The notes under the pieces: model-generated
Database searches by the model: none
Told to the model about the DNA's origin: nothing
The model's input: only the letters and a program-made list of their open reading frames with translations
Translations under genes and position numbers: made by a program
Source: a virus
Lineage: Duplodnaviria; Heunggongvirae; Uroviricota; Caudoviricetes
Reading direction: 5' to 3' (one strand)
IMG/VR virus record: IMGVR_UViG_648276670_000007
Coordinates: 1-5,691 of that record
Length of the DNA: 5,691 nucleotides
Shown: in pieces, positions 2,816 to 5,691 of the stretch
Numbering within the stretch: the first letter of the stretch is position 1
Layout of the letters: the number at the start of each line of letters is the position of its first letter

Positions 2816-3088
2816 TCAGTGTTTCCGGTCGACGGTGATGTTCAGGCCGCCTTCTGCAGTGGTTTCCACCCGGTACGGCACCTCGTGCTCTGCCGTGTGG
2901 GTGAGTGTGTTCATCAGTACCTGCAGGGCAGCCTCCTTTCCGTTGGTTGCCACAATGGCCTGCGTGGCCATGCTGATTAGCGCCGTCAGGACGTGCTTCA
3001 CATCGGTGAGGTCGCGGCATTCACACTCGTTGACATAGTGTTCAACAAGAGTTCGGGTGCGCTGTCGTGCTTCCTGTGGGGTAATCAT
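2816..3088 (-). CDS. hypothetical protein, 90 aa
   Basis: ATG at 3088 overlaps the TGA of the zinc-ribbon ORF (ATGA coupling). No recognisable family. Confidence 0.5.
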   Translation of the reverse strand: MITPQEARQRTRTLVEHYVNECECRDLTDVKHVLTALISMATQAIVATNGKEAALQVLMNTLTHTAEHEVPYRVETTAEGGLNITVDRKH

Positions 3089-3279
3089 TGCGCGTCCTCC
3101 CTGTCAGGGCGGGAGAATTCCATGACGGGCACGTCCGCCGAAAAATGCTGGCTGCAGTACGGACAGACCAGGGTGACACGTACTGCAGGTACGTGGTACT
3201 TACCGGACATCACGGCGATGGCGCTGTGAAAACGCAGGGCTGTTATATCCCTCTCGCACTGAATACATTTAAATATCAT
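3085..3279 (-). CDS. small zinc-ribbon protein, 64 aa (CxxC...CxxC)
   Basis: Cys pairs at residues 5/8 and 39/42 (CIQC ... CPYC). AGGAGA SD 8 nt upstream of ATG 3279. First gene after the gam-downstream intergenic region. Confidence 0.55.
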   Translation of the reverse strand: MIFKCIQCERDITALRFHSAIAVMSGKYHVPAVRVTLVCPYCSQHFSADVPVMEFSRPDREDAQ

Positions 3280-3297
3280 AATTTAATTCTCCTCTGT

Positions 3298-3334
3298 TTC
3301 CGGCGTGCAGAAGCCCACGGCGCTGACGCCGGAA
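3298..3334. promoter_or_regulatory. intergenic stem-loop (9-bp perfect stem TTCCGGCGT/ACGCCGGAA, 19-nt loop) between gam and the zinc-ribbon gene
   Basis: Inverted repeat read directly from the sequence. No U-run follows it on either strand, so it is not a canonical intrinsic terminator. It ends 4 nt before the SD of the downstream ORF and is flanked by an AT-rich tract (3335-3370). Confidence 0.4.
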
Positions 3335-3376
3335 TAAAAAAGAAAATGTTTTTATTAAATAATTAACGTGGTGTGT

Positions 3377-3907
3377 TTACTGCACATCCTGCTCAAAAGG
3401 AATTATTGAAAAATCCTCAATATCACTTTTTATGGTAATACCGGGAATATTTTTCACGGCGTCCTTTTCATTCAGGATAGCGTCTTTATTTATTTCCTCC
3501 TTTACACGGATAAAGCGCTCAAGCCCCAGACGTCTCAGTAATTCAATAACATTATCCGCCCCACGGATACTGACTGATGGCGGACGGTTTCGCCACTGCA
3601 CCTCGCCGGTGGTGAGGTTAGCGAACTTCACCTTCCCGTTGCCGGTCAGTTCATCACGGTGTGCCTCACACCATGTCTGAATACCGGACTGCAGTTCGGC
3701 CATGCGTTTTTTCAGGCTCTCGGTGAGCGGGGCATAACGTGCGGTGATATCGCCAATGGCGTCATTCATTTCTGTTTCAGCCCTGACCAGTTCACGGTGT
3801 GCGTCACCGAGCAGTCTGATGCCCTCAATGACCTCTTCACGTGTCCCCGGCACCCAGAGTGCTGCTGCGGCCTTGATACGTTTTGCACCTTTTGTACTTT
3901 TTGCCAT
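3377..3907 (-). CDS. gam: Gam-like host-nuclease inhibitor (Mu Gam family), 176 aa
   Basis: Size, position downstream of B, and motifs (MAKSTKGAKRIKAAAALWVP..., RPPSVSIRG..., GITIKSDIEDFSIIPFEQ) match Mu Gam as I recall it. ATG at 3907, TAA at 3377-3379. Confidence 0.8.
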   Translation of the reverse strand: MAKSTKGAKRIKAAAALWVPGTREEVIEGIRLLGDAHRELVRAETEMNDAIGDITARYAPLTESLKKRMAELQSGIQTWCEAHRDELTGNGKVKFANLTTGEVQWRNRPPSVSIRGADNVIELLRRLGLERFIRVKEEINKDAILNEKDAVKNIPGITIKSDIEDFSIIPFEQDVQ

Positions 3908-4206: not shown

Positions 4207-5103
4207 TTAAACCCCTTTGACAACGTCAGCGTTGACCTGTGGAACCCCGATTTCAGCGGCCAGATTCATGGCGGCTATTACCAGGTTACTGACGGCCAGC
4301 GGATACAGCAGGCTGACCATATTTTTACGATGACTTCCCGGATTGCTCAGGCGGGTACGTATGGCATCCACTGCGCTGGCGTCCATAATGTCCGTCAGTT
4401 GTTTACCGGCCCGTTGCAGTTTGAACGTCAGAAATTCTTCAAGGTGATTGTCCAGAGGCAGAAGTTCGACCACCTCACAGCGCTGAACGACTTCGCGGAC
4501 TTCCATGTTGCGTTCAGACAGTTTTGTCGCCAGTTCCGGCTGGCCAATCAGCACGATGGACAGCAGTTTTTTGAAACCGGACTCCAGCTCAAAAAAGCGT
4601 TTGAGGTGTTTCAGTGTCGGAATGGGCAGACTGTGGGCCTCCTCAATCACCAGAACGTGGCTGAACCCCGCCTGGCTGCTGTCTTTCAGGACGCGATGCA
4701 ACTGGCGAAAGCGGGCGTCCTGACTGCGTCTGATGCTTTCCAGTGGCGCGATGGTACTGATAATGGCTTCGGCAATAGCTGCTGCCTTCAGGGTTTTCCC
4801 TTTCACATCGTTGTCTTCCATGGCAATGATGTATGGCTCGATAACAATTACCGGCGCATTCTCGCGGTTGATACGTTCAGTCAGGTCACGGCGCAGCGTG
4901 GATTTACCCGCACCGGACTCACCGATGACGGCCATAAACCCACCATGACGGGCTGTCTGGTACAACGCCTCACGCACGTAGCGAATGTCTGGTGTGGTGA
5001 ACACATCATCAGAACCCTGCATGGCTTCGTCGACGAACGGGTCACGGAAAAGACCAAACGCTTTTTTGGTTGCTGGAAATAACACCTGTTTTTTGAGTAA
5101 CAT
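4207..5103 (-). CDS. AAA+ ATPase, MuB/TniB-like transposition target-capture protein, 298 aa
   Basis: Walker A GESGAGKST at residues 61-69 and Walker B-like hhhhEE (HVLVIEEAH) at about 149-157. GAGGA SD 7 nt upstream of ATG 5103. Followed by kil-position and gam genes, as in Mu. The reading frame stays open for a further 42 codons upstream, up to a TGA at 5230-5232 (see findings). Confidence 0.8.
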   Translation of the reverse strand: MLLKKQVLFPATKKAFGLFRDPFVDEAMQGSDDVFTTPDIRYVREALYQTARHGGFMAVIGESGAGKSTLRRDLTERINRENAPVIVIEPYIIAMEDNDVKGKTLKAAAIAEAIISTIAPLESIRRSQDARFRQLHRVLKDSSQAGFSHVLVIEEAHSLPIPTLKHLKRFFELESGFKKLLSIVLIGQPELATKLSERNMEVREVVQRCEVVELLPLDNHLEEFLTFKLQRAGKQLTDIMDASAVDAIRTRLSNPGSHRKNMVSLLYPLAVSNLVIAAMNLAAEIGVPQVNADVVKGV

Positions 5104-5143
5104 ATTCTCTTCCTCACTGAGGCTCGTTTTATCTGTGGTACCC

Positions 5144-5175
5144 GCTGTACGGGGCGTGGCCGCGCCCTGTACAGC
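5144..5175. repeat. 32-bp GC-rich near-perfect palindrome (GCTGTACGGGGCGTGGCCGCGCCCTGTACAGC)
   Basis: 28 of 32 positions are self-complementary; the 4 mismatches are two T/G pairs that would be G-U wobbles in a plus-strand RNA. Lies 41-72 nt upstream of the B start codon, between B and the IS end. Confidence 0.6.
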
Positions 5176-5227
5176 ATCAAAACTCTTCGCTGTATCAATC
5201 CCCTGACTTTCCAGCCAGGACGCAAGA

Positions 5228-5691
<464 letters not shown>

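Follow-up and report, generated by a model that had tools for sequence, protein, structure and literature searches.

The window analyzed here, a 5691-nt stretch of DNA, carries the early region of a Mu-like (B3/BcepMu-type) prophage on its minus strand, with genes for Mor (1–390), GemA, DUF2786, Gam (3377–3907) and the AAA+ transposition protein B. Near its end, at positions 5144–5175, lies a 32-nt palindrome. The question raised by this locus is what kind of element the palindrome represents and on which strand it would act.

An inverted-repeat search of the region 5050–5300 returned the palindrome as the only hit, with arms at 5144–5159 and 5160–5175. The arms are 16 nt each, follow each other without a spacer and are complementary at 14 of 16 positions (88%), in agreement with the 28/32 self-complementarity given in the original prediction. 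The two non-Watson–Crick positions are A·C on the minus (B mRNA-like) strand and G·U on the plus strand. The claim that the mismatches can pair as wobbles only on the strand opposite to B transcription was thus borne out, and the asymmetry proved to be family-wide. As RNA, the plus strand forms 14 pairs (12 Watson–Crick and 2 G·U) enclosing the loop GGCC at 5158–5161. Folding of both strands gave −26.4 kcal/mol for the plus strand (z −5.0, with none of 200 shuffles as good) versus −20.9 kcal/mol for the minus strand (z −3.7).

The palindrome exceeds chance expectation. In 300 dinucleotide-preserving shuffles, a palindrome of equal quality (16-nt arms, at least 14 Watson–Crick pairs, loop 0–8) appeared somewhere in the 5691-nt window in 1.3% of cases. 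Synonymous recodings of the encoded peptide AVQGAATPRTA with the codon usage of B attained 14/16 pairing at a frequency of 0.075% (P = 7.5e-4), and all five pairs at third codon positions of the palindrome are Watson–Crick.

Position of the palindrome inside gene B

The minus-strand sequence at 4207–5227 is a remnant of a transposition ATPase gene of the ExeA/'Eha' type, comprising codons 49–388 of 388. It matched the domain AAA_22 (3.8e-20) and the family PHROG 296 (1.3e-92), and in intact relatives the gene directly follows that of the DDE transposase (order A–B). The AAA+ domain, the full-length similarity and the place after the transposase gene identify the product as a transposition protein B of the B3/BcepMu type. 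In the intact prophages of E. coli E-1246 and phage PhiKM, B is annotated as a 1167-nt ORF of 388 codons. With coordinates converted as window position = E-1246 locus position − 1201, full-length B would occupy the window-equivalent 4207–5373. In E-1246 (locus L002, 1–1560) the Mu-like prophage borders with its Mor end on the tail genes of a different prophage, which are encoded on the other strand; the transposable phage thus apparently inserted itself into that prophage.

The reading frame of B is open through the palindrome, upstream of an ATG at 5103, and matches the intact protein. The palindrome therefore consists of B codons 67–77 (A V Q G A A T P R T A, minus strand) and is not part of an untranslated leader. 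The comparison with an ordinary 5′ UTR, from which the original prediction started, accordingly does not apply, since these codons are coding in both E-1246 and PhiKM. Its location "upstream of B" was correct in part. The ATG at 5103 is the internal Met91 of full-length B and not the start of the gene; a conserved Shine–Dalgarno sequence does precede this codon, and B of Lonsdalea prophages starts there. At the protein level the palindrome falls in an indel-rich, poorly conserved interdomain linker, between the N-terminal domain and a conserved E-x-x-M-L-L-x-K-Q motif that precedes the AAA+ domain.

The 5′ part of B was removed by an insertion sequence. Positions 5228–5691 of the plus strand belong to the left end of IS100 (IS21 family), with 100% identity to plasmid copies, and include the 5′ portion of its istA gene (ATG at 5314). 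The insertion, with its junction at 5227/5228, took away the start codon and the first 48 codons, which decapitated the long B ORF and left the hairpin element intact. The distance from the palindrome to the start of IS100 is 52 nt. None of 5426 complete E. coli genomes has the B::IS100 junction. The event is specific to the source strain and has no connection with the palindrome. The possibility of a recombination or transposition site tied to the IS junction can be discarded, since the identical palindrome occurs in hundreds of prophages devoid of IS100. A terminal or target structure of IS21/IS100 was also rejected, because IS100 starts at 5228 and the palindrome is present in IS-free intact prophages.

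Two further features of the early region were noted. A 64-aa ORF on the minus strand at 3088–3279 encodes a zinc-ribbon-like protein with two CxxC pairs (PHROG 3401); at the equivalent position the PhiKM annotation has an ORF on the opposite strand instead. A Com-like zinc-finger RNA binder was considered for this CxxC...CxxC ORF and rejected, as it gave no Com match in Pfam. The intergenic stretch between Gam and the 64-aa ORF contains a GC-rich hairpin at about 3296–3340 (CCGGCGT...ACGCCGG). Its T-run, read on the early-transcript (minus) strand, comes before the hairpin and not after it.

Conservation and covariation of the stem-loop

The exact 32-mer was found at 704 places in 636 of the 5426 E. 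coli genomes, with a median of one per genome. Among the matches listed, all lie within an ExeA-family (B) gene, and the totals equal those obtained with longer B-gene queries. A REP/BIME-type repeat was rejected on the basis of this median of one copy and the location within the B gene rather than between genes. The proposed search of homologous prophages and of the genome thus showed that the palindrome is conserved in intact prophages and is no genome-wide REP-type repeat. A covariance model of the element, derived from the 30-mer alignment described below, gave one match per locus, always in the B linker, including a single match in the 34.7-kb PhiKM genome. Among the 44-nt windows of both strands of that entire genome the hairpin ranks second in stability, surpassed solely by an intergenic terminator-like hairpin. 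The latter, at 30769–30812 of locus L239, has a 15-bp stem, is situated between a DNA adenine methylase gene and the next gene, and looks like a bidirectional terminator.

Conservation was examined in about 240 loci with a B homologue, which came from named phages, viral contigs and genomes. B3-type phages, together with related prophages in Enterobacteria, Pasteurellaceae, Pseudomonas, Ralstonia and Stenotrophomonas, have a stem of 13 bp and a loop of 4 nt at the same site of B. Strong hairpins of differing sequence occupy the same place in homologues whose linkers defy alignment to that of the window, both in prophages (Serratia, Brenneria, Xenorhabdus, Pasteurellaceae, Pseudomonas and Oxalobacteraceae relatives) and in the phages B3, Fc02, PM105, phiSHP3, Ralstonia YO107_2 and Lsp-JY19. 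BcepMu has a variant hairpin with a different 10-bp stem at this site. On the antisense strand the linker contains the most stable 44-nt window of the approximately 4-kb locus in 20 of 32 representatives and one of the top three in 7 more. The hairpin is retained over a range of protein identity from 100% to 50%, with several double changes that arose independently. In Pectobacterium/Dickeya relatives double changes (A-T to G-C, T-A to A-T and G-C to A-T) preserve the outer stem, and some of these are non-synonymous. Single-sided changes that weaken the stem occur among the close relatives of E. coli type. Stem and loop lengths vary between lineages; Photorhabdus, Eikenella and some Brenneria have a weakened hairpin or none. 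Phages Bise and Mae-JY22 show no clear hairpin in the B linker, and muB of phage Mu has none.

In a Pasteurellaceae subfamily (L165–L195) and in BcepMu (L240) the hairpin of the B linker has a 10–12-bp stem with a 19–22-nt loop, and the apex-like sequence TTGGCG is found on the sense strand, as if the loop were inverted between the arms. A strong hairpin, GCTGCCG-TTCG-GCGGCAG, recurs in the 3′ part of transposase gene A (L089, L127 and L041, around 1148–1190), about 350 nt before the start of B and outside the window. It overlaps the conserved peptide K-A-L-P-F-G-G, belongs to the top-ranked hairpins of several loci and could represent another conserved structure or simply follow from the peptide sequence.

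Covariation was scored on an ungapped alignment of 52 distinct antisense 30-mers (13-bp stem plus 4-nt loop), a set that was chosen for at least 11 of 13 pairs. In this alignment 97.3% of the cells are paired and 12 of the 13 pairs change on both sides; the covariation score was 0.906, whereas shuffled controls gave 0.21 and sliding of the partners 0.25 at most. The pair G12–C19 (G5156–C5163 in the window) is invariant in this alignment of all lineages, and the wobble that closes the loop, U13·G18 (T5157·G5162), is present in 50 of the 52 distinct sequences. Together these positions give a conserved apex of the pattern G-U-[loop]-G-C, which in the window corresponds to GCGTGGCCGCGC (5154–5165, plus strand). 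Since the 52 sequences had been preselected, the test was repeated on unfiltered family sets. RNAalifold returned the same helix for 17 unfiltered Pseudomonas-type sequences, with no broken cells and 8 pairs with compensatory changes, and again for 20 unfiltered enterobacterial sequences.

The motif is translated in two different frames. In Enterobacteria and Pasteurellaceae it reads GCG-GCC/CCA-ACN (A-A/P-T), and in Pseudomonas, Ralstonia and Stenotrophomonas CGC-GCC-AAC (R-A-N). The conserved entity is therefore a nucleic-acid structure and not a peptide; a motif at the protein level was rejected because of the two reading frames in a linker that is otherwise unalignable. The alignments show compensatory substitutions that have preserved the hairpin across widely differing hosts, and this comparative evidence for conservation and covariation is solid. 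The palindrome of the window is probably one copy of a previously undescribed structured nucleic-acid element.

Strand preference and a predicted internal start of B

To compare the two strands, we counted stems at a fixed geometry of 13 pairs and a loop of 4, allowing Watson–Crick and G·U pairs. Perfect 13/13 stems were present on the antisense strand in 119 of 233 loci, versus none of 233 on the sense strand. The 52-sequence alignment contains 114 G·U cells (17% of the cells) versus at most 18 unpaired cells, and in pairs 3–12 there are 63 G·U cells versus a single other cell on the antisense strand. Compensatory evolution therefore passes via G·U on the antisense strand only. The antisense hairpin was predicted to be more stable than the sense one in 19 of 23 lineages, although the two strands of B genes do not in general differ in folding stability (mean difference −0.4 ± 3.5 kcal/mol). 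The covariance model matched 5145–5174 on the plus strand of the window with 41.3 bits, versus 22.7 bits on the minus strand. A test of strand preference at synonymous sites was confounded by codon bias in GC-rich hosts and had few events elsewhere. Because of this, the assignment of the strand rests on the counts of pair types. Part of the G·U asymmetry could stem from avoidance of T at codon positions 1–2 in hydrophilic linkers, and part from the bias towards C-ending codons in GC-rich hosts. The sense-strand TTGGCG of the Pasteurellaceae subfamily and of BcepMu is a further caveat to an antisense assignment. In lineages of AT-rich or intermediate GC content sense G·U pairs are few (3 of 37). 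From these counts we infer, with good support, that selection acts on the antisense strand, and the strand concerned in this locus is quite probably the plus strand of the window.

A second conserved region lies downstream of the hairpin in the direction of B transcription. The internal ATG (5101–5103, minus strand), Met91 of full-length B, is preceded at a distance of 3 nt by the Shine–Dalgarno-like sequence GAGGAAGAG (5107–5115, minus strand). Met91 is invariant in 186 of 186 unique homologues, and an SD-like GAGGA stands before it in almost all lineages. The codon of Leu92 is TTA or CTA in all 186 unique genes and that of Pro100 is CCA in 174 of 182, GC-rich hosts included, where these are rare codons. 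The segment with the SD, the ATG and the constrained codons covers B codons 86–101 (5071–5117, minus strand). This synonymous constraint in the Met91 region suggests either a second internal translation start, giving a short B, or an overlapping signal on the opposite strand; a short isoform from the internal start is plausible. The hairpin is located about 56 nt upstream of the internal SD and ATG, with a range of about 40–60 nt.

Prophages of Lonsdalea (L038, L053, L036 and L047) provide an informative arrangement. Their B lacks the N-terminal domain and starts at the equivalent of Met91 behind a GGAGG sequence. About 110 nt before the start of B, a non-coding spacer of about 190 nt that follows transposase gene A contains a shorter version of the hairpin (CCTGACGGCGYGCCGTCGGG, antisense strand). 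The sequence context of Met91 and the Lonsdalea arrangement therefore indicate that the hairpin belongs with the start of the AAA+ module.

The antisense strand of the Met91 region also contains a smaller stem-loop, placed between the CAT complementary to Met91 and the main hairpin, with the anti-SD sequence as its 5′ arm. In the window this structure is CCTCACTGAGG at 5112–5122 (plus strand), which includes the anti-SD CTCTTCCTC. It begins 6–7 nt after the CAT in Pasteurellaceae and Pseudomonas; in the E. coli lineage the distance is greater by a few nt.

A candidate antisense RNA and its alternatives

The sequences following the palindrome, ATCAAAACTC on the plus strand and GGGTACCACA on the minus strand, do not contain a T-run, and a terminator scan of the equivalent region in an intact prophage called nothing at the site. 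These two results uphold the earlier statement that the palindrome is not a standard terminator, and an intrinsic (Rho-independent) terminator was rejected for the E. coli lineage. Some distant lineages have U/C-rich tails, such as CUUUUUUG in locus L051. By visual inspection no slippery motif conserved across lineages was found upstream of the hairpin, and a frameshift site was rejected.

A search for promoters on the antisense strand of four lineages did not give a sigma-70-like promoter at a consistent position, nor was a consistent sigma-54 site found. The best candidate near the element, TGGAAA-18-TAACAT, was recognized by eye; it agrees with the consensus at 8 of 12 positions and is poor in Pseudomonas. 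An antisense TAnCAT over Met91–Leu92 is invariant, which is explained equally well by the context of the start codon. The one strand-specific RNA-seq study of a B3-like phage, Fc02, reports antisense-strand transcripts in lysogens from the regulatory region only and makes no mention of an RNA at the hairpin (PMC9936078). RNAs below about 100 nt are generally lost in libraries of this type, and small RNAs probably escaped detection.

Comparison with Rfam 15 gave no family at or above its gathering threshold. The best match in the window was FinP with 16.9 bits (threshold 45), and in phiSHP3 we found asX1 (24.4 bits, threshold 70), ctRNA_pGA1 (20.6, threshold 45) and SymR (19.9, threshold 61). 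Kinship to asX1 was rejected in view of the sub-threshold score and because asX1 is a chromosomal sRNA of Xanthomonas with no link to phages (PMC3300014). A survey of the open-access full-text literature returned neither a description of the element nor anything relevant on an antisense RNA in Mu-like or other transposable phages. Conserved secondary structure on the strand opposite the target gene, as in cis-encoded antisense RNAs, is present in the B linker.

We tentatively propose, with a probability of about 0.4, that the palindrome is a structured element acting antisense to B, most likely a stem-loop of a candidate cis-antisense RNA that would control B. A short cis-antisense RNA would be the most economical molecular form of such an element. 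The hairpin would be its main stem-loop, and the RNA would also carry the smaller 5′ stem-loop with the anti-SD and extend across the internal start of B translation. Once paired with the mRNA of B, it could limit or tune B expression, possibly including the ratio of long to short B, in analogy to the action of RNA-OUT of IS10 on its transposase. It is conceivable, if doubtful, that the B3/BcepMu-type phages of Gamma- and Betaproteobacteria share a predicted two-hairpin RNA of this kind, nested antisense in the B linker and controlling the internal start, and hence the balance of isoforms or the dose of B. In that case the peptide of the linker would only follow the nucleic-acid structure, which would account for the two reading frames of the motif.

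Several observations that concern the internal start would also fit an element of the sense (early, B-encoding) mRNA, which we consider rather unlikely. Such an element, located upstream of the internal start, would set the level of short B relative to long B and transposase A, in the form of a processing stem for RNase III/E, a 5′-stabilizing stem or a ribosome 'speed bump'. The hairpin is always about 40–60 nt 5′ of the conserved SD and ATG, codons 91–100 are strongly constrained at synonymous sites as is typical of a translation initiation region, and the Lonsdalea element lies in a true A–B spacer upstream of the B start. Moreover, the sense hairpin is still stable (−16 to −32 kcal/mol), and the recurrent mismatch at stem position 7 together with the loop-closing pair could be a designed internal loop. 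What speaks against it is the nature of the substitutions. Compensatory intermediates take the form of G·U on the antisense strand alone, as reflected in the 63 versus 1 cells of pairs 3–12, and a perfect sense stem was not encountered in any of the 233 loci. The scarcity of sense G·U in AT-rich and intermediate-GC lineages points the same way, since in the AT-rich members codon bias should favor T-ending codons.

The strand specificity with G·T-compatible wobble positions would also suit a hairpin in single-stranded DNA of the plus strand. Such a hairpin could serve as a site for protein recognition, priming or pausing in replicative transposition, for example on the lagging-strand template of a fork that enters from the Mor-proximal end of the phage. 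These phages replicate by transposition, their early region is oriented towards the near end, and neither a promoter nor a terminator is evident. However, G·T in DNA is costlier than G·U in RNA, yet 17% of the cells are of this type. Phage Mu has no hairpin in muB, and we know of no requirement for a single-stranded hairpin site in Mu-type replication. The constant distance to the internal start codon would also be left unexplained, and overall we regard a DNA element of this type as improbable.

The covariation and the conserved asymmetric apex fit poorly with two further explanations. A template-switch (quasi-palindrome) mutation could have produced the palindrome as a non-functional by-product that is tolerated in an unconstrained linker peptide. 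The linker does accept indels and substitutions, single-sided changes weaken the stem among close E. coli-type relatives, and some lineages have lost the hairpin. Such an origin is nevertheless very improbable in view of the persistence to 50% protein identity with independent double changes, the conserved apex and closing wobble, and the top rank of the hairpin within the locus in most lineages; repair by template switching would make both strands fully complementary and not leave G·U on one of them. The operator for a dimeric regulator that the original prediction considered, taken here as a double-stranded operator or enhancer bound by a dimer of the phage repressor, a Ner-like protein, transposase A or the B N-terminal domain, is hardly tenable: the dyad is perfectly centered in the window and an apex-like motif occurs in either orientation in two lineages, but half-sites predict conserved arms and a variable center, and the alignment has the opposite, with arms that covary freely and differ wholly between lineages around a conserved center, with variable stem and loop lengths and with every asymmetry oriented to one strand.

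Among known systems, the putative antisense RNA of the B linker appears to resemble the antisense regulators of transposons most, with the difference that it is nested in a linker over the internal start of an AAA+ helper. Like RNA-OUT of IS10/Tn10, the element would be a stable stem-loop with wobbles or mismatches in its stem, encoded on the opposite strand inside a transposition gene and extending over an SD and AUG. A transposition protein would be controlled in both cases, and by analogy with MuB, B is probably harmful in excess. The differences are that the hairpin in B lies about 270 nt inside the ORF, in the interdomain linker and over an internal start instead of the 5′ end of the gene, that the target is the AAA+ helper B and not a DDE transposase, and that there is no sequence similarity. 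The antisense RNA of the B linker is also a prediction from sequence. Antisense RNAs of the FinP, ctRNA and SymR type (RF00107, RF00236, RF01809) share the two-hairpin architecture with a long GC-rich terminal stem and were the sole, weak Rfam matches, all on the antisense strand. Scores of 17–25 bits against thresholds of 45–70 reflect a generic hairpin resemblance, and the B element is not a member of these families.

Other hairpins share separate properties with the element. The RNase III sites of T7, lambda sib and REP stabilizers are strong hairpins lacking a U-tract in a polycistronic early transcript before a translation start, whereas the B element is optimized on the non-coding strand, lies within an ORF and is single-copy. 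The bottom strand of integron attC sites, IS200/IS605 ends and primosome assembly sites have a strand-specific hairpin with a covarying stem and conserved unpaired or wobble features. In contrast to these sites, the B element comes without an associated recombinase or HUH enzyme and without extrahelical bases, and there is one copy per phage. AAA+ genes of the ClpB type, which yield two isoforms, are comparable in that the conserved internal SD and ATG ahead of the AAA+ module suggest a long and a short B; for B these two isoforms are a prediction from the nucleotide sequence. We know of no hairpin in ClpB that is comparable to the element in the B linker.

If functional, the antisense element would add a layer of control on the transposition machinery of very widespread temperate phages. 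The prophage studied here occurs in 12% of complete E. coli genomes, ST131 included, and relatives are found in genomes of Pseudomonas, Burkholderia, Haemophilus-like bacteria and plant pathogens. The internal start would provide these phages with two isoforms of B. A practical yield is a compact covariance model with which such prophages can be found and oriented. Gene annotation and dN/dS analyses normally overlook overlapping structures of this kind, and the B linker, again if the element is functional, would be a clean case in which an overlapping nucleic-acid structure of the other strand prescribes the sequence of a protein linker.
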